Notes under the pieces: generated by a model | Database searches by the model: none | Told to the model about the DNA's origin: nothing | The model's input: the letters and a program-made list of their open reading frames with translations, nothing else | From: a virus | Taxonomy: Duplodnaviria; Heunggongvirae; Uroviricota; Caudoviricetes | DNA: 23,428 bases | Virus record (IMG/VR): IMGVR_UViG_2602041549_000007 | Span: 1-23,428 of that record | Direction: 5' to 3' (one strand) | Made by a program: the position numbers and the translations under genes | Part shown: positions 1,561 through 8,113 of the stretch, in pieces | Layout of the letters: each line of letters begins with the position of its first letter | Numbering within the stretch: the first letter of the stretch is position 1

Positions 1561-1721
1561 GGTACATTTCTTACCTGTTTTTATGTTCTGGTGTCGTTTT
1601 GTAGTCTTTTCAATGAGTTGTGATTTTTTGTGTTTCCTCTCTTTACTTGATAATGAGTTAGTTTATCGCTTGTTATCGACTTGAAAGGACTACATGACGG
1701 ACTAAAAAATGAGGGCGATAG

Positions 1722-2960
1722 ATGCCGGTAAAGCCATTAACCGTGACTGAAGTTAAGGGAATGAAACCACGTGAAAAGGACTATGCCGTTTATGATGGGT
1801 TCGGTTTATTGCTGAATGTGAGTAAAGCTGGTGGGAAAGTGTGGCGTTTCCGTTATAGCCATCCGATAACGAAGAAACGGCAGACATACACGATAGGGCG
1901 TTTTCCTGAATTCTCACTCGCGGAAGCACGGGAAGTACGTGATGAACTTCGGCGAATGATTGCACGTGGAGTTGATCCAGTGACAGAGAAGAAAAATCGT
2001 AAAATTGAGATGTCACTAAAAAATCTACAAACATTTGAAGCTGTTGCTAATGCATGGATCGCTTTTAAAAAGGGATCGGAATTGCGGAAACCTACGCTGT
2101 ATAATATCGAATATGAAGTATACAAATATCTTGTTCCTTTCTTTGGTAAGTACAGCATAGAGAAAATTACAGCGCCAGTAGCTATTAATGCTCTGGATGC
2201 CGTATCCGATAAGAATGCGTTGCAAAAAAAATTAATATCAAGATTAAATGAAATTATGAATTACGCTGTAAATTGTGGAGCATTGAAAACGAATCCATTA
2301 CTTAAGATAAAAACTGCATTCACAGGAAAGAAAAATAAATCATTAGCTGCACTACCTGTTGAAAGATTGCCTGAATTTCTGAGTTGGTGGGATAGTGTGC
2401 CTCATAAGTATCAAATAGCTCACAATGCACTTTTATTCCAGATATTGACAATGGTCAGGCCAGGTGAGGCGATTAAAGCAGAGTGATCCGAGATTGATTT
2501 TGATTCTGGCTTGTGGATTATCCCCGCGCATAAAATGAAATGCCATCGTGAACATGTTGTGCCTCTCTCATCACAGGCTATTAGAATCCTAAGAACAATG
2601 CAGGAAATAAAAAGAGGGCGTTATATATTTTTTTCCTCCAGAACAAAAGATGCTCCTATGGGAAAGAATACTATCAATACCCCAATTGCTGCCAGCAAGT
2701 TCAAAGGGATTGTAACGTTACACGGTTTTCGTTCGATGTGGAGTACGCTTTTAAATGAGGAGGGTTTTAACCCTGATGTTATTGAGGCTGCATTAGCACA
2801 TAAAAGTGGTGATAAAATAAGAGATATTTATAATAGAACTACTTATTTAGAACAACGCAAAATTATGATGCAATGGGTAGGAGATTTTTTTGATGAGGCG
2901 AGAAAAGGGGTAATTAATAGATCCGGTGGTAAGAAAGGTTTGAGAATAGTAAATGGTTGA
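1722..2960 (+). pseudogene. int: P4-type tyrosine integrase interrupted by an in-frame TGA (2484-2486) at a conserved Trp codon
   Basis: ORFs 1722-2486 and 2511-2960 are in the same frame; read-through gives ...RPGEAIKAE*SEIDFDSGLWIIPA, matching the P4/CP4-57 integrase motif ...AEARWDEIDLD..W.IPA; C-terminal HGFRS and LAH box present; GAGGG RBS before ATG 1722. Confidence 0.85.
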
Positions 2961-2972
2961 GGAGTTCAGCAA

Positions 2973-3176
2973 ATGAATACCAATGAAGATATTTTATTTA
3001 CTAAAGACGTAATGAAAATTTTGCGCTATGGGGCAATGAGCGCATTCATCAATTTCTGGAAAGATGAAAATAATGGTTTTCCTCAACCGTTCAGAATTGG
3101 GCGGCGGCATACCTGGCACCGTAGAGATGTAGAGGCATGGTTAGATAAACAACGAGAACAGGCCAATCCCCACTAA
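2973..3176 (+). CDS. alpA: AlpA-family DNA-binding regulator / excisionase-like protein
   Basis: 67 aa immediately downstream of int; pattern ..FP.P...G.R..W...DVE.WL typical of the AlpA/phage regulatory family; GGAG RBS. Confidence 0.7.
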   Translation: MNTNEDILFTKDVMKILRYGAMSAFINFWKDENNGFPQPFRIGRRHTWHRRDVEAWLDKQREQANPH

Positions 3177-3190
3177 TAATATCTTTCATA

Positions 3191-3216
3191 CCCCGCACGC
3201 AATGCGGGGTTTTTTG
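3191..3216 (+). terminator. Rho-independent terminator after alpA
   Basis: CCCCGCA-cgcaa-TGCGGGG hairpin followed by TTTTTT. Confidence 0.7.
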
Positions 3217-3233
3217 TATGTGAGGTAAAAACG

Positions 3234-3812
3234 ATGAATAAAAATATTGCCGTGACGGGCAAGGGGTACGCTCGTTCAGTAAAAAAATTCTGCGATATTC
3301 GTGATCTTGTCGTTCTGCGCTTTAATGGCGTGGATGTTCGTGTGGTGTATCTGAACGGCGATCCGTGGTTTGTTGCAAACGATGTTTGTGCTGCGCTGGA
3401 ACTAACCAATTCGCGTACGGCGTTGCAGATGCTTGATGATGATGAAAAGGGAGTAAATTTAACTTACACCCCAGGAGGAAATCAGAATATGAGCATTATC
3501 TCTGGGTCAGGTTTCTACAAACTAATAGCCCGCAGCCGCAAAGCAACGACGCCTGGCACATTTGCTCATCGTTTCAGTAACTGGGTATTCAGAAATGTGA
3601 TACCGGGTATCAGAGAAACAGGGGCTTATGGTATCCCATGGGGTGCATTACAGGATTTTTCCCGCCGTAAAGAGCAATATCAAATAAGTGCCAGCGAGAA
3701 GGGGAGGGGGCTACAGGCATGTAAGCGCAAAAAGCGTGAGCTGGAGGAAGAAGAAAAAAGGCTGATACGTGAATATCAGCCTGAGTTTTACTTTGGTAAC
3801 CGCATTCAGTGA
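3234..3812 (+). CDS. Bro-N domain protein (phage antirepressor-like)
   Basis: 192 aa; ...VRVVYLNGDPWFVANDVCAALELTNSRTALQMLDDDEKG is a typical Bro-N motif; GAGG RBS 8 nt upstream. Confidence 0.8.
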   Translation: MNKNIAVTGKGYARSVKKFCDIRDLVVLRFNGVDVRVVYLNGDPWFVANDVCAALELTNSRTALQMLDDDEKGVNLTYTPGGNQNMSIISGSGFYKLIARSRKATTPGTFAHRFSNWVFRNVIPGIRETGAYGIPWGALQDFSRRKEQYQISASEKGRGLQACKRKKRELEEEEKRLIREYQPEFYFGNRIQ

Positions 3813-3841
3813 CAAAACAAAGGCGACCGGGGGCGGTCGCC
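3812..3841 (-). terminator. Hairpin terminator for the leftward transcript (between convergent genes)
   Basis: Perfect 8-bp stem GGCGACCG/CGGTCGCC with GGGG loop at 3822-3841; the T-rich tract is on the minus strand (plus-strand ACAAAACAAA, 3812-3821). Confidence 0.55.
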
Positions 3842-3905
3842 AATGGGAAAGCACTAAACATAAGCACGGGGATGATAGCCGCTATCAGGCTGGTGGGCAA
3901 TGCAA

Positions 3906-4094
3906 TCAGTCTGGTTCAGTTCGTTGCCATACCTGCAATGAGCGCGTTTCCCTGTACTCTTTAAGGAATTGCTCAAGGGCAAAAGCACATGGCGCGAATC
4001 TTTCTGATTCATGCTCTATCTTTCTGCGCCGTCTTTTCCGTGCCGGTGATAATGTTTTGGTCAATTCTTTATCGGTCATTGTGTTGTCCTGCAT
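3906..4094 (-). CDS. Hypothetical small basic protein (62 aa), downstream of the RHH gene on the same strand
   Basis: ORF lies between the RHH gene and the minus-strand terminator; no convincing Shine-Dalgarno; contains an RKRRRRK tract. Weak call. Confidence 0.3.
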   Translation of the reverse strand: MQDNTMTDKELTKTLSPARKRRRRKIEHESERFAPCAFALEQFLKEYRETRSLQVWQRTEPD

Positions 4095-4136
4095 AGCAAT
4101 GCGCCGTAATACCTTACACCACGGCGCTGATGGTGA

Positions 4137-4316
4137 TTACTCTGGTTCTTTGGCCTTGCGGCGCTGGCGGCGTTTGATCTCGCCTTCAAGTGCCGAAACG
4201 ATAAATTGCCCAGTGCTTTCGCCTTCTTCCTTTAAATTTTCTACAGCGTCAGCTATTGCATGGGGGACTCGTGCCTCAAGTTTTTTGGATTTTCCATTAA
4301 CTGCTTTCGTTGCCAT
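4137..4316 (-). CDS. Ribbon-helix-helix (CopG/Arc-like) DNA-binding protein, putative satellite repressor
   Basis: Start taken at internal ATG (MATKAVNGKSKKLEARVPHAIADAVENLKEEGESTGQFIVSALEGEI...) with AAGGA RBS; beta-strand plus two-helix pattern typical of RHH; the tracked 117-aa ORF is over-extended. Confidence 0.65.
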   Translation of the reverse strand: MATKAVNGKSKKLEARVPHAIADAVENLKEEGESTGQFIVSALEGEIKRRQRRKAKEPE

Positions 4317-4338
4317 ATCTGATTTCCTTGTTATTAGG

Positions 4339-4421
4339 TGGCTGACAGTATACACACAAGAAAATGGAAAAACACTATTGACGTGGCTGACACCTGTTAC
4401 TAGTATAGTGGCTGACACCTT
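4339..4421. promoter_or_regulatory. Divergent promoter/operator region with three copies of GTGGCTGACA(CCT)
   Basis: Copies at 4339-4348, 4383-4395, 4409-4421; rightward promoter TTGACG (4378-4383), 17-nt spacer, TAGTAT (4401-4406) overlapped by copies 2 and 3; candidate leftward promoter TTGTGT-17-TAATAA with copy 1 in its spacer. Confidence 0.5.
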
Positions 4422-4515
4422 TATTGAGGTAATCGATGAAAAGACAAAGCCCGCAGGTGCTACCAACACCAACGGGCTTCTAACCACCAACGATAGAAAG
4501 AGTATCGAGGTAGCT

Positions 4516-4722
4516 ATGAGAAATCATACCACACACCCGCAAGGGCGGGACTCGCACAACCTGAATAAATACATCTGGCGTTTTATCGCCCTGAGCACGG
4601 CACAACCGCGCGTGATTACCATTGAGGCCACTAGCGAACAGGAAGCACGCCAGCAATCCCCGGCTGGCTGCGTGATGGTATTCGCCGCCCGTATTCGTCA
4701 GGGGGTACGCCATGTGCAATAA
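4516..4722 (+). CDS. Hypothetical protein, first gene of the rightward early operon (possibly Ash/Icd-like; family uncertain)
   Basis: 68-codon ORF with GAGGTAGCT RBS; corresponds to the 3' end of the artifactual 317-aa ORF 3769-4722. Confidence 0.5.
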   Translation: MRNHTTHPQGRDSHNLNKYIWRFIALSTAQPRVITIEATSEQEARQQSPAGCVMVFAARIRQGVRHVQ

Positions 4723-4948
4723 CACCCGTCCGGACGCAGCCGCCGAAGCAATCAAAACACTGATTGATGCGCTGATTGATATTTCTGTTATCGCGGACAG
4801 GGCGCATAAGCACGCTACCAGTGAAACAGAATATACCAGGGCTTTCGTTCCTCGCTCACTGGTTGCTATGCGGATTATCGCTGATATGGCACTGAATGAG
4901 GCCAGCAAAATTATCATGGCTGATATGGAGGTGGTGAGCCATGCATAA
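4712..4948 (+). CDS. Hypothetical protein (78 aa)
   Basis: Start overlaps the previous stop (ATGTGCAATAA); same strand, operon-like packing. Confidence 0.5.
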   Translation: MCNNTRPDAAAEAIKTLIDALIDISVIADRAHKHATSETEYTRAFVPRSLVAMRIIADMALNEASKIIMADMEVVSHA

Positions 4949-5153
4949 TCATGAAACGCACTTACCTGTAGTGCTGAATGTGCCATCAGATTATACGGGT
5001 CGCGTACTGGTGTATCTGGGAAAAGGCCGGGTTAGATGCCAGTGCCGTTTAATGGAAAACGAATTTATCAGCACTCTTGCGGGATTTTCTGAAATGCTCA
5101 CTAAATCGGGTGTTAGTGCAGACCAGTTATGCGGGGGCGATTATGCGAAATAA
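4941..5153 (+). CDS. Hypothetical protein (70 aa)
   Basis: Overlapping start/stop with the preceding ORF; no recognisable domain. Confidence 0.45.
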   Translation: MHNHETHLPVVLNVPSDYTGRVLVYLGKGRVRCQCRLMENEFISTLAGFSEMLTKSGVSADQLCGGDYAK

Positions 5154-5361
5154 ACGTGATATTGAAGACCTGGCATTTGAAGCCCTGCACTCTGCGAAAA
5201 AGATCAGGGAAGTCGTCAATATGTGGATGAACAGCCTTAGCACCGATAAATCCGATAGCAGAGAAGAAATTCTTATTTCTTTGTTGTTAGACCTGGCAAA
5301 TACACAGGTTTCTCTGACATCTGATATTGAACTCGCCGCTAAAAAGCAGCCTCTGGAGTAA
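5143..5361 (+). CDS. Hypothetical protein (72 aa)
   Basis: ATG 5143 overlaps the upstream stop (ATGCGAAATAA); the tracked ORF from 5077 is judged over-extended. Confidence 0.45.
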   Translation: MRNKRDIEDLAFEALHSAKKIREVVNMWMNSLSTDKSDSREEILISLLLDLANTQVSLTSDIELAAKKQPLE

Positions 5362-5366
5362 AAACC

Positions 5367-5666
5367 ATGAAAAAGAAAAATTCTGGCATTACTGCCAGCG
5401 GCCTCTCTCGGCCTGAAATCCGCCCAGGCGATATTTTCCGGGATAACTACGGCGGCACGGTAACGATTAAAAGCGTGGCGGGACGGTGCGTTACTTACCG
5501 CCGTGATGGGTACGGCTATGACTGCGTGATGCCTGTTTATCAGTTCCGGCGTGATTTTTCACTGATACAGGCCACACCACGCAAACAGCCCACCAGCAAC
5601 GCCAGGGCACGGGCGAACATTCAGAAAATGAAAAACATGATTAACGCATTCAGGGGCAAAAAATGA
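5367..5666 (+). CDS. Hypothetical protein (99 aa)
   Basis: GGAG RBS; stop overlaps the start of the replication gene. Confidence 0.5.
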   Translation: MKKKNSGITASGLSRPEIRPGDIFRDNYGGTVTIKSVAGRCVTYRRDGYGYDCVMPVYQFRRDFSLIQATPRKQPTSNARARANIQKMKNMINAFRGKK

Positions 5667-7078
5667 AACTGGCACCGAACTTAAAAAAACAGCCACACGA
5701 CAAAATGACCGAAGTCATTATTTTTGCGGGTAGTGATGCCTGGGCGCACGCGAAACAATGGCAGGAGCAGGACGGGCGACTTGCTGGCGATAACGTCCCG
5801 CCTGTATGGCTGGGAGACAGCCAGCTTGACGAACTGGCAGACCTTAAAATCATCGACGATGGTCGCTATTGTGTCCGGCTGTACAAGGCAGGCCACATCA
5901 AGCCGTCAAATATTAATGCCATCGGGCAAAAGCTGGCGACGGCAGGTGTACGGGATGCGAATTATTACCCCGAGGGAATGCACAGCCAGAAGCGGGAGGA
6001 GTGGCGCGAATATCTGGAGCGTGAGCGCCAGAAAAAAATGTCCGGAGAGATACCGGAGGAAGAAAAAAACGAACAGCGAAAAACCACGCTACCAATGAGT
6101 ATTGGATCTGCAGGGTACGACACACAGCTTGATTATGTCGTTAAGGGCGTGATTCCGGCTAATTCGTTGTGCAGCACATACGGCGCGAGCGGTTCCTATA
6201 AATCGTTCCTTGCGTGTTCCTGGGCGTGTCATGTTGCCACTGGTCGCCACTGGGGAGGCCGCAGGGTGGCGCATGGTTCGGTGATGTATGTTGTCGGTGA
6301 AGGTGGCATTGGTGTCCCCCGTCGTATCAAGGCATGGGAAATCGTTAATGATGAACGGGTGAAAAATCTGTACCTGGTAAACCGCCCGATTTTTCCGGCA
6401 GCCCCGCTTGATGTTGATGAAATGGTCATCGCTTCCCGCCAGGTTGAACGGGAAACGGGTAAACCGGTACGCATGATTATTCTGGATACGCTGGCGCGTT
6501 GCTTTGGCGGTAATGATGAAAATGACGCGCGGGATATGGGGGCGTTTATCCGTGGATGTGACGAACTGAAACGCCGCACAGGGGTCACGGTGCTGGTGGT
6601 TCACCATTCCGGCAAGGATGAAACAAAGGGAGCGCGTGGTTCCAGTGCATTTCGTGCATCTCTGGACGCTGAATACCGTATTCGCCGGGAAGGTGCAGAC
6701 AGCGAAGCTCTGGTTATCTCCTGCACCAAAATGAAGGACGCGGAGGAACTGAAAGAGGCTGCATATGATTTACGTGTGGTGGAGCTTTTTACCGACACTG
6801 ACGGGGAGTTAATCACGTCGCTGGTGGTTGTGGATAAGCCGCGCCCGCCTGTTGAACTGGAACGCATCGAGGAAGCCGGGAACAAGACGGAGAATCATGC
6901 CGCGCTATGGGGATGTATCCGTTCACGCACACAGCGTGGCGATAAATGCACTATTCCGTTGTTGCGCGATGATATGAAAAAGCTGGGGTATGAGATGAAA
7001 CACTTCCGGCGCTGGCTGTACAAGCTGGAAGGTGATGGCGTTATTGCTATTGACGGTGATGACGTGCGCCCACTGTAA
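5663..7078 (+). CDS. Replication protein, RepA/DnaB-like AAA ATPase (helicase) with C-terminal putative origin-binding domain
   Basis: 471 aa; Walker A-like GASGSYKS, Walker B-like MIILD, VVHHSGKD motif typical of the AAA_25/RepA helicase family; iteron array starts at its stop codon. Confidence 0.75.
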   Translation: MKLAPNLKKQPHDKMTEVIIFAGSDAWAHAKQWQEQDGRLAGDNVPPVWLGDSQLDELADLKIIDDGRYCVRLYKAGHIKPSNINAIGQKLATAGVRDANYYPEGMHSQKREEWREYLERERQKKMSGEIPEEEKNEQRKTTLPMSIGSAGYDTQLDYVVKGVIPANSLCSTYGASGSYKSFLACSWACHVATGRHWGGRRVAHGSVMYVVGEGGIGVPRRIKAWEIVNDERVKNLYLVNRPIFPAAPLDVDEMVIASRQVERETGKPVRMIILDTLARCFGGNDENDARDMGAFIRGCDELKRRTGVTVLVVHHSGKDETKGARGSSAFRASLDAEYRIRREGADSEALVISCTKMKDAEELKEAAYDLRVVELFTDTDGELITSLVVVDKPRPPVELERIEEAGNKTENHAALWGCIRSRTQRGDKCTIPLLRDDMKKLGYEMKHFRRWLYKLEGDGVIAIDGDDVRPL

Positions 7079-7271
7079 AAAGTGGGTAGTAAAAGTGGGG
7101 AGTGTGGGGAATTTAACAAAATTGAAACGTGATTCCCCACTTTCCCACCTGTATATACCCCAAAAAGTGGGGAGTAAAAAACACATTGAAAAACAGTACA
7201 TTAGAGTCACAAAAAAAAGAAGTGGGGAGACGTTGGGTAATTTCAAAAAGTGGGGAACAAAAGTGGGGAGT
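7078..7271. repeat. Iteron array (AAGTGGGGAG), putative satellite replication origin
   Basis: Direct copies at 7078-7088 (variant), 7091-7101, 7165-7175, 7219-7229, 7248-7258, 7261-7271, one inverted copy at 7134-7143 and a degenerate copy at 7103-7110, separated by A-rich tracts. Confidence 0.6.
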
Positions 7272-7279
7272 GGTGAGGA

Positions 7280-7531
7280 ATGACCAGAAAAACCAGAGAT
7301 AAAACAGCGCCAAAATATCGCGCATTAGACATGACAGAGCACGCCTTAAAGGTGGCAATCAGAACAATAGACCGCCATGCCGGAGAAGGATACGCGAAAA
7401 CACATCCCGAACTGATAAGCGCATTCATGACAGCGGCGGCGGCAAACTTTGCCACGCTGACAGAGCTGGAGATAGCCGAAGCGGAACAGGTGACAACCAT
7501 CAACGTTAAAACCGGAGAGCAGACAGCATGA
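7280..7531 (+). CDS. Hypothetical protein (83 aa)
   Basis: ORF immediately downstream of the iterons; stop overlaps the start of the SSB-like gene. Confidence 0.5.
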   Translation: MTRKTRDKTAPKYRALDMTEHALKVAIRTIDRHAGEGYAKTHPELISAFMTAAAANFATLTELEIAEAEQVTTINVKTGEQTA

Positions 7532-7950
7532 CAGCACAGATAGCGGCTTACGGGAGGCTGGCGACTGACCCGCAGTTAAAGACCACCAGCAAAGGGACAC
7601 AAATGGCGATGGCGAGTATGGCGGTCCCACTGCCATGCAGTCAGGCAGATGACGGAACGGCGACGATGTGGTTATCCGTCCTGGCGTTTGGCAGACAGGC
7701 CGATGCGCTGGCCAGACACCACAAAGGCGAACTGGTGAGCGTGGCGGGTAACATGCAGGTAAGCCAGTGGACAGGCCAGAACGGGGAAACGCGGCAGGGC
7801 TGGCAGGTTATCGCAGACAGTGTAATCAGTGCGCGAACGGCGCGACCGGGCGGCAAAAAAGGCCAGCAGGGCCAGGCTACTGACGCACTGAACAGGGCAA
7901 AACAACAGGCGGGGAATGATGATCCGTACGGGGATAACATACCGTTTTAA
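7528..7950 (+). CDS. Single-stranded DNA-binding protein-like (divergent SSB)
   Basis: 140 aa; OB-fold-like N-terminal region with the SSB pattern (...W..V..FG..A......KG..V...G.....W.......R...) and C-terminal DDPYGDNIPF resembling the SSB tail DDDIPF. Confidence 0.65.
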   Translation: MTAQIAAYGRLATDPQLKTTSKGTQMAMASMAVPLPCSQADDGTATMWLSVLAFGRQADALARHHKGELVSVAGNMQVSQWTGQNGETRQGWQVIADSVISARTARPGGKKGQQGQATDALNRAKQQAGNDDPYGDNIPF

Positions 7951-7965
7951 GCAACGAGTAACAGA

Positions 7966-7989
7966 AGCCGGAGTAATCCGGCTTTTTTA
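7966..7989 (+). terminator. Rho-independent terminator after the SSB-like gene
   Basis: AGCCGGA-gtaa-TCCGGCT hairpin plus TTTTTT. Confidence 0.65.
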
Positions 7990-7990
7990 T

Positions 7991-8062
7991 GGGTCCTTCC
8001 GGTGTAGTGACCTGCCACGGGGCGGGAGCGTCGCGGGAAAAGGCTGGTTTTTGCATTTTCAT
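7991..8062 (+). other. cos site A (lambda-like cosQ-cosN), satellite copy 1
   Basis: GGGTCCTTCCGGTGTAGTGACCTGCCACG GGGCGGGAGCGT CGCGGG matches lambda ...GGGTCCTTTCCGGTGATCCGACAGGTTACG GGGCGGCGACCT CGCGGG (lambda sequence recalled from memory); predicted 12-nt cohesive end 8020-8031. Confidence 0.75.
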
Positions 8063-8113
8063 GGCGGCGGCAGCATGTGTGATAATTTATTGATAATTAA
8101 AAATTATTTCTGC

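Follow-up and report, generated by a model that had tools for sequence, protein, structure and literature searches.

A candidate ribbon-helix-helix repressor switch with three operator repeats in a Gram-negative phage-inducible island

The current view of the phage-inducible chromosomal islands (PICIs) of Gram-negative bacteria is that an activator controls them. In the island EcCICFT073 the activator is AlpA, which is encoded beside the integrase gene int and is experimentally required (PMC6092414). In the PICIs of Gram-positive bacteria (the Staphylococcus aureus pathogenicity islands, SaPIs), the gene of the repressor Stl/Rpr is divergent from the replication operon, with int on the repressor side (PMC6092414). 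Lambdoid phages carry three operators (OR1-3) over back-to-back promoters, with autoregulation, and their immunity regions are exchanged as mosaic blocks between near-identical elements and come in many specificity types. Here we describe a region of the DNA stretch IMGVR_UViG_2602041549_000007, a Caudoviricetes record of the IMG/VR collection that was analysed over its whole length of 23,428 bp (referred to below as the window). A satellite island in this window carries the gene of a small ribbon-helix-helix (RHH) protein of the YlcI/YnfO family, divergent from an early/replication operon and separated from it by three copies of a short repeat lying on the promoters. The comparison of homologous loci points to a putative and undescribed repressor switch in these islands. 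The cassette with its sites is not mentioned in PMC6092414, PMC10111431 or PMC11773190, and in the open-access literature we found neither a characterisation of YlcI/YnfO/DUF3950 nor an RHH repressor in Gram-negative PICIs.

The repeat is an exact 10-mer, GTGGCTGACA, found on the plus strand at 4338-4347, 4383-4392 and 4408-4417, which are its sole exact copies in the window. An earlier reading of the region from its letters alone (the sequence-only reading) had described this repeat, extended by CCT, as occurring three times within 85 bp. The triple 10-mer stands, but CCT follows only copies 2 and 3, copy 1 running into GTATAC instead. Copies 2 and 3 share a longer match of 22 nt, ACTAnTnnnGTGGCTGACACCT. 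When the window was simulated 300 times with a first-order Markov model, no triple 10-mer inside 85 bp appeared; calculated analytically, about 6e-5 would be expected. Each copy forms an 11-bp pseudo-palindrome, GTG-N5-CAC, with the exception of the first (O1), which ends in CAG. Homologous loci were drawn from one genome per species, from metagenomes and by exact-protein look-up, giving 55 distinct locus types from Escherichia, Salmonella, Xenorhabdus, Pectobacterium, Yersinia, Serratia, Limnobaculum and metagenomes. The elements of the cassette in the window are the following.

4137-4316, minus strand: gene of the RHH regulator, 59 aa, YlcI/YnfO family (open reading frame, ORF)
4325-4329, minus strand: Shine-Dalgarno sequence AAGGA of the RHH gene (direct sequence reading)
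4338-4348: operator O1, GTGGCTGACAG, spanning about -8 to +3 of the leftward promoter P_L
4347-4352, minus strand: TATACT, probable -10 of P_L, the promoter of the RHH gene (hexamer conserved in the 55 distinct loci)
4357-4374, plus strand: A-rich tract of fixed length between the promoters
4378-4383, plus strand: TTGACG, -35 of the rightward promoter P_R (consensus scan; TTGAnG invariant in 55/55 loci)
4383-4393: operator O2, GTGGCTGACAC, beginning on the final -35 base of P_R and occupying the upstream half of the spacer, about -31 to -21
4401-4406, plus strand: TAGTAT, -10 of P_R (consensus scan; 17-bp spacer)
4408-4418: operator O3, GTGGCTGACAC, beginning 2 bases past the P_R -10 and spanning about -6 to +5

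The same layout was common to the 55 loci: one site abuts CAGTATAC, one runs from the last base of TTGAnG, and one lies at or just after TAnnnT, a hexamer that is kept 17-18 bp from the -35. P_R matches the consensus at 9 of 12 positions, and the scan recovered independently the same promoter, TTGACG-17-TAGTAT, that had been proposed by the sequence-only reading; its transcripts would start near 4413-4414. The two copies previously assigned to the -35 and start region of this promoter are indeed found there, O2 on the end of the -35 and O3 on the -10/+1. On the other side, a hexamer abutting O1, TATACT in the window, probably serves the RHH gene as the -10 of its own promoter. This hexamer is TATACT in 36 of the 55 loci (the variants being TATAAT, TATATT, TATTCT, TACAAT, TATAGT and TAAAAT), with conservation per position of T47 A52 T52 A52 C44 T55, and on the minus strand it terminates on the last-but-one base of O1. 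The last base of O1 departs from CAC in nearly all loci, a deviation explained by this overlap with the hexamer. The distance between the P_L -10 and the P_R -35 is 25-26 nt in 54 of the 55 loci, and the A-rich tract between them possibly acts both as an UP-like element for P_R and as the spacer of P_L. O1 has the same geometry relative to the P_L -10 as O3 has relative to P_R -10 elements of the TATAGT type. The compact switch of the sequence-only reading thus keeps its RHH protein and its three operators over divergent promoters, conserved in 55 loci, and loses its leftward-promoter geometry, in which O1 lay in the promoter spacer, since the conserved minus-strand TATACT directly abuts O1.

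O2 and O3 are separated by 22-35 bp across the loci, and in five of them (L029, L047, L089, L104 and L107) O3 is found in inverted orientation, as one would predict if its reader is a symmetric dimer. Over the rest of the window (e.g., int, alpA or the late genes) further operator copies were seen only as matches with 1-2 mismatches, 30 in total, and 7 of 100 shuffles of the window gave as many or more. No CTG-N10-CAG is present, which rules out a LexA box over O1. In two Xenorhabdus loci the DNA between operator copies is gone, together with promoter elements (between O2 and O3 in L002, between O1 and O3 in L013), apparently lost by recombination between the direct repeats.

The RHH protein and these sites change together across the loci. 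The N5 core of the operators is lineage-specific and the same across all three sites of a locus, and it changes in concert with residues 11-15 of the protein, located in the ribbon, giving at least 14 classes, among them the following.

Ribbon KKLEARV, RKLEARV: core GCTGA
Ribbon KRIDARV, KRFDVRV: core TCC(C/G)A
Ribbon QALKARV, QSLKSRV: core GGCCA
Ribbon QKISVRI, QKTSVRI: core TCCGT and relatives
Ribbon QK(L/V)Q(A/T)RA: core GAnTC
Ribbon QKMSARV: core GGTGC
Ribbon QQLNARF: core CGATT
Ribbon QSVTARI: core TAAGA
Ribbon QT(I/L)AAR(V/I): core TTCAA
Ribbon LQ(V/L)SVRL: core GTGTT
Ribbon TQLASRV: core CTAA(G/C)
Ribbon QQIVSRI: core GCATT
Ribbon QKIQARV: core TAGTC

Pairs of loci with identical residues 11-15 had an identical O2 in 111 of 125 cases, against 34 of 1150 for pairs in which these residues differed. 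Five operator predictions were recorded beforehand for new ribbons; four proved exact and the fifth was one base off. Two further unseen ribbons came with new cores, located at the three predicted positions. Between the window and Xenorhabdus all 33 operator bases are identical, and only 29 of the 54 remaining intergenic positions are so. Along the RHH protein of the same pair, residues 1-18 are identical at 17 of 18 positions and residues 19-55 at 24 of 37.

Linkage alone would let neighbouring DNA covary with the operators, which is why the boundaries of the cassette matter. In one locus, L047, these boundaries are seen directly: its identity to the window is 92-100% over 3850-4150 and 94-98% over 4500-4650, falling to 63-84% across 4150-4450, with a ribbon (QSVTARI) and an operator (GTGTAAGACAC) both unlike those of the window. 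As the divergence is confined to a segment in which the RHH gene is the only ORF, the specificity determinant must lie inside the cassette. The neighbours behave differently. The Icd-like protein encoded first in the P_R operon, the small ORF downstream of the RHH gene and the C-terminal domain of the replicase showed no covariation with the operators; nearly identical Icd-like proteins accompany at least five operator classes, and the distance between operators is unrelated to that between Icd-like proteins (rho 0.07). The replicase (5663-7078) and its counterpart in the island of E. coli fS58a (L014, 15814-17631) have the first ~120 residues in common (91% identity over a 139-residue alignment), followed by an AAA_25 domain in the window and a primase-family domain in fS58a, over switch regions that are 98.6% identical. 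In Salmonella reads (L100 and L101) the cassette precedes a KilA-N gene instead of the Icd-like gene, and in another hit (H28) it lies over a gene annotated as ash-family, indicating that the cassette moves as a unit between different operons. Among 5,426 complete E. coli genomes the cassette alone was found in 144 at ≥80% coverage; a 900-bp query including the Icd-like gene and the small ORF matched partially in 1,678 and at ≥80% coverage in 89.

The product of the 4137-4316 ORF is MATKAVNGKSKKLEARVPHAIADAVENLKEEGESTGQFIVSALEGEIKRRQRRKAKEPE. It has the strand-helix-helix organisation of the RHH fold over about 45 residues, with an extended ribbon (9-17), a first helix (19-28), a G32-E-S-T turn, a second helix (35-56) and an invariant basic tail, EIKRRQR. 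In the family alignment G32-E-S34-T35 is nearly invariant, strand positions 13, 15 and 17 are hydrophobic or small, and positions 12, 14 and 16 are polar or charged; this turn and strand pattern, together with the fold, bears out the RHH identity given to the product by the sequence-only reading. R16 and EIKRR (46-50) are invariant and Q51-R52 almost so, and the most variable positions are 11, 12, 14 and 15. The protein belongs to the NCBIfam family NF041551 (YlcI/YnfO; 61.9 bits for a cutoff of 30, E = 4e-17), the name that RefSeq also gives to its homologues (YlcI/YnfO family protein), and it matches phrog_949 (E = 1.5e-22), a PHROG with no function assigned that includes YlcI of E. coli K-12. 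The family comprises 94 representative clusters at E ≤ 0.001 out of 1.84 billion. Single homologues gave weak Pfam matches to RHH_1 (0.009), CB_ParB_C (0.049) and PSK_trans_fac (0.03). In a profile comparison with hhalign the family aligned with Arc (P = 8e-4), placing K12, E14 and R16 opposite Arc Q9, N11 and R13, which are the base-contacting residues of the Arc ribbon. The pseudo-palindromic sites and the orientation-independent O3 would fit a symmetric dimer. The C-terminal EIKRRQR(R/K)K (residues 46-59; 4137-4180 of the window), invariant in the family, resembles an arginine-rich motif, and is retained in L100 and L101, loci without the structured leader described below. The name-giving member, YlcI of K-12 (L097, 8252-8446), has an RHH-like sequence pattern and is divergent from nohD, beside the cos region of DLP12; a brief look at this locus did not reveal the three-operator layout upstream of ylcI.

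Altogether, we consider that the region is probably the RHH repressor/operator cassette of a Gram-negative PICI, with three sites, repression of P_R and negative autoregulation, and would put the probability of this reading at roughly three in four. The RHH dimer would bind the three 11-bp GTG-N5-CAC sites, probably one dimer at each, residues 12 and 14 of the ribbon (with 11 and 15) reading the N5 core and the invariant Arg16 the constant outer triplets. Occupancy of O2 and O3 would exclude RNA polymerase from the core of P_R and silence the early/replication operon. Since O1 is placed relative to the P_L -10 as O3 is relative to the P_R -10, the protein should repress its own promoter too, and O1, with its conserved mismatch, may be the weaker site. 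Binding, its stoichiometry, repression, autoregulation and the transcription starts are what we infer from the conserved arrangement; repression of the early/replication operon and autoregulation may be counted as well-supported predictions. Islands with different ribbons would be heteroimmune. The switch might be flipped by a helper-encoded anti-repressor, or overridden if transcription that depends on AlpA, or late transcription of the helper, crosses the cassette rightward. The hairpin that follows the Bro gene has no T-run on the plus strand, so that, as a speculation, transcription of this kind could bypass P_R.

Several observations weigh against this interpretation. The rest of the RHH protein also correlates with the operator type (Mantel r 0.57, compared to 0.63 for the ribbon), and in a cassette of 350 bp physical linkage by itself should produce part of the covariation. 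The consensus scan called no leftward promoter in the intergenic region, and P_L has no recognisable -35, none being found at 16-18 bp from TATACT. The spacing of O2 and O3 does not correspond to an integral number of helical turns, which makes cooperativity less than obvious. The window RHH protein had no match in Pfam, and neither Foldseek against the PDB nor phmmer and profile searches of PDB sequences gave anything significant. Finally, in EcCICFT073 induction needs the activator AlpA, whose over-expression alone led to replication and without which there is no transfer (PMC6092414). The RHH protein is therefore not the sole control, and whatever repression it exerts can be overridden; the sequence-only reading had gone as far as a master repressor of the satellite, a role that reaches further than the evidence, AlpA being the key regulator in EcCICFT073 (PMC6092414).

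Other explanations would leave the RHH protein with a lesser or a different role. We judge it quite improbable that the RHH gene is a bystander and that the sites are read by another protein, be it the helper prophage repressor, AlpA, the Icd-like product or a replication initiator for which the repeats would be iterons. PHROGs calls the Icd-like family a transcriptional repressor; however, Icd-like proteins at least 85% identical stand beside operators differing at three or more positions in 65 pairs of loci, and others less than 50% identical beside identical operators in 25 pairs (again rho 0.07). Iterons are common in satellites, but the sites lie on core promoter elements and not downstream of the replicase, where PICI origins have been reported (PMC10111431), and the replicase has its C-terminal domain swapped between the window and fS58a despite the near-identical switch. 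The immunity region of the helper is outside the window; a helper repressor would leave the tracking of the core by the adjacent ribbon unexplained. The KilA-N genes that follow the Salmonella cassettes, and the diverged segment of L047 that holds the RHH gene only, argue likewise against any other reader. That the repeats arose by chance or by slippage and have no regulatory role is hardly credible. Direct repeats can come from duplication, and deletions between them exist (L002, L013), but the low random expectation, the positions conserved in 55 loci, the tracking of the cores by the ribbon and the success of the out-of-sample predictions all contradict it.

A very improbable alternative is a type II pair in which the RHH protein would act as antitoxin and the product of the downstream 62-aa ORF as toxin, the repeats serving only to autoregulate the two genes. 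A conserved, co-inherited adjacent toxin, as found in type II systems, is missing here: many loci have lost the downstream ORF and keep the RHH gene and all three sites (L001, L003 and L005 of Xenorhabdus, L009, L041, L046, L085 and L089). Besides, two of the three sites are on the divergent promoter and not on that of the RHH gene, the C-terminus of the protein is a short, basic and invariant tail and not a toxin-binding extension, and the ORF matches only a PHROG with no function assigned. A small but real chance may be left to a dual regulator similar to lambda CI, which when bound at O2 would activate P_L, with O2 and O3 repressing P_R and a weaker O1 closing P_L at high dose. A P_L with a good -10 and no -35, its nearly invariant distance to the P_R -35/O2 (the 25-26 nt found in 54 of 55 loci), the more variable distance of 22-35 bp between O2 and O3 and the conserved departure of O1 from the consensus would all fit such an activator. 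These arguments are, however, solely geometric, and the fixed spacing may just reflect tightly packed back-to-back promoters; O2 is centred ~48 bp upstream of the predicted P_L start, -48 not being a canonical activator position, and the mismatch of O1 is also forced by the overlapping -10 hexamer.

Read as a repressor switch, the cassette differs from each of the described systems. Database searches gave no significant sequence homology between the window protein and Arc or Mnt, the repressors from the immI region of phage P22. The operator of Arc is a single 21-bp sequence occupied by a dimer of dimers, whereas the window has three distinct 11-bp sites spaced 22-45 bp apart, and its protein has a long second helix and an invariant basic tail. 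Compared to the CopG/CopA-type RHH repressors and RHH antitoxin domains (CopA_SO 6iya, omega, AmrZ), it has no toxin partner and it falls in a separate NCBIfam family (YlcI/YnfO) with no function assigned; the sites of the omega repressor are tandem heptads (according to the title of PDB entry 2bnw), unlike those of the window. The lambdoid CI/Cro system shares the three operators over back-to-back promoters, the autoregulation (here predicted), the exchange in mosaic blocks and the multiplicity of specificities, but our protein has the RHH fold instead of helix-turn-helix (HTH) and no SOS-cleavable domain, and a Cro-like second reader is lacking, since the first gene to the right shows no covariation with the operators. 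Stl is a larger HTH protein, and no link between Stl/Rpr and the window protein was found in database searches. In the case of Stl it is established that a helper protein causes derepression, and the window element carries in addition an AlpA-like gene; with regard to a master role like that of Stl/Rpr, the divergent layout is the only feature in common. EcCICFT073 belongs to the same element family and has the same cassette, with ribbon QALKARV and operators GTGGGCCACAC, three GTGGG(G/C)(G/C)ACA(G/C) sites. Finally, P1 c4-icd-ant and the P4 CI immunity RNAs also have a structured RNA between the promoter and an icd-like gene, and C4/isrK-type RNAs have been reported in some PICIs (Tommasini et al., PMC10111431), but the leader hairpins of the window are a different and unclassified structure, and the Rfam models of C4 and isrK were unmatched anywhere in the window.

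The island (ca. 1700-11600) interrupts a Qin-like lambdoid prophage in its terminase large-subunit gene, a split-terminase arrangement also present in E. coli fS58a (L014), and it has the organisation of a helper-embedded Gram-negative PICI (HE-PICI), a configuration already described by Tommasini et al. (PMC10111431). In their four-zone scheme (PMC10111431) the cassette would be put at the Bro/replication boundary. A blastn search against the phage collection gave no match. The other features of the island and its surroundings are listed below.

568-1560 and 11896-13008: halves of the helper terminase large-subunit gene
1722-2960: int
2973-3176: HTH_17-like gene (E = 0.004, 17.7 bits, below the Pfam cutoff of 27), AlpA-like by position only
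3234-3812: Bro-N gene
3812-3841, minus strand: terminator-like hairpin with T-run closing the leftward transcript (plus strand without T-run)
3906-4094, minus strand: small ORF of 57-62 aa downstream of the RHH gene (phrog_21027, no function assigned; annotated in CFT073)
4419-4515, plus strand: structured 5' leader of the P_R transcript, ~100 nt (fold z = -3.2)
4516-4722, plus strand: Icd-like gene, first of the P_R operon (NF033153, E = 1.5e-19)
8581-10494: protease-capsid fusion (ClpP-protease/major capsid), 57% identical to that of the helper (14478-16697)
10695-11237: DUF1441 terS-like gene, 49% identical over 75 residues to that of the helper (20-559)

The possession by the island of its own capsid-fusion and terS-like genes suggests capsid/packaging redirection. 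The satellite integrase has an in-frame TGA at 2484-2486, where the fS58a copy has TGG (Trp), and this copy of the island may therefore fail to excise, leaving the helper terminase gene permanently split. After the Icd-like gene the P_R operon continues with small ORFs, a DUF4222 gene, the AAA_25 replicase already mentioned and a single-stranded DNA-binding protein (SSB) gene at 7528-7950 (Pfam and the annotation of the fS58a island, which is near-identical). The small ORF at 3906-4094 is probably co-transcribed with the RHH gene. Its product has the motif ERFAPCAFxLExFLKEY, conserved in E. coli islands including EcCICFT073 and missing from many other genera, is identical in L047 and unrelated to the operator class, and matched no toxin family in Pfam, NCBIfam or PHROGs.

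The leader of the P_R transcript contains three hairpins (HP1-HP3), HP1 (~4420-4440), of variable sequence and directly 3' of O3, HP2 (4446-4480), followed by a conserved single-stranded YUCUAACCA, and HP3 (4491-4507), which adjoins the GAGG Shine-Dalgarno sequence of the Icd-like gene. The consensus structure of HP2 and HP3 has compensatory changes in 12 of 16 pairs, and 91% of its cells are paired, compared to 78% in shuffles and 32-39% in slid controls. At the Rfam gathering score no RNA of C4, isrK or CI type was found over the whole window, nor was there a C4 or isrK match at 4300-4800 up to E = 10; the sole hit, a sub-threshold SymR-like match on the minus strand (28.6 bits for a threshold of 61), was not accepted, and the leader matched no Rfam family. 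Any likeness of the leader to boxB/boxA or to substrates of RNase P should be taken as no more than a lead. A 15-codon ORF at 4436-4483 seems, by inspection, not to be conserved in other loci.

What the cassette may mean for these islands goes beyond a single locus. It occupies the position where Gram-positive islands keep Stl, and is a concrete candidate for a layer of control so far missing. A more far-reaching and tentative idea, which we regard as possible but doubtful, is that Gram-negative PICIs, including EcCICFT073, have an overlooked Stl-like repressor, the YlcI/YnfO RHH protein, that would silence the replication operon and be derepressed by the helper or bypassed by AlpA-dependent read-through. 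If so, a single invariant scaffold would, through its hypervariable ribbon, support 14 or more "immunity" types orthogonal to one another, and the arginine-rich tail EIKRRQRRK, together with the structured leader and its YUCUAACCA, might add a layer at the RNA level. A probable function is also suggested for the YlcI/YnfO family, which includes two y-genes of E. coli K-12. The interest lies mainly in a putative RHH switch that went unnoticed in a well-studied family of satellites, and in the natural specificity series that it offers: a set of ribbons and 11-bp operators on a fixed 59-residue scaffold, which could provide an RHH recognition code and orthogonal repressor/promoter pairs.

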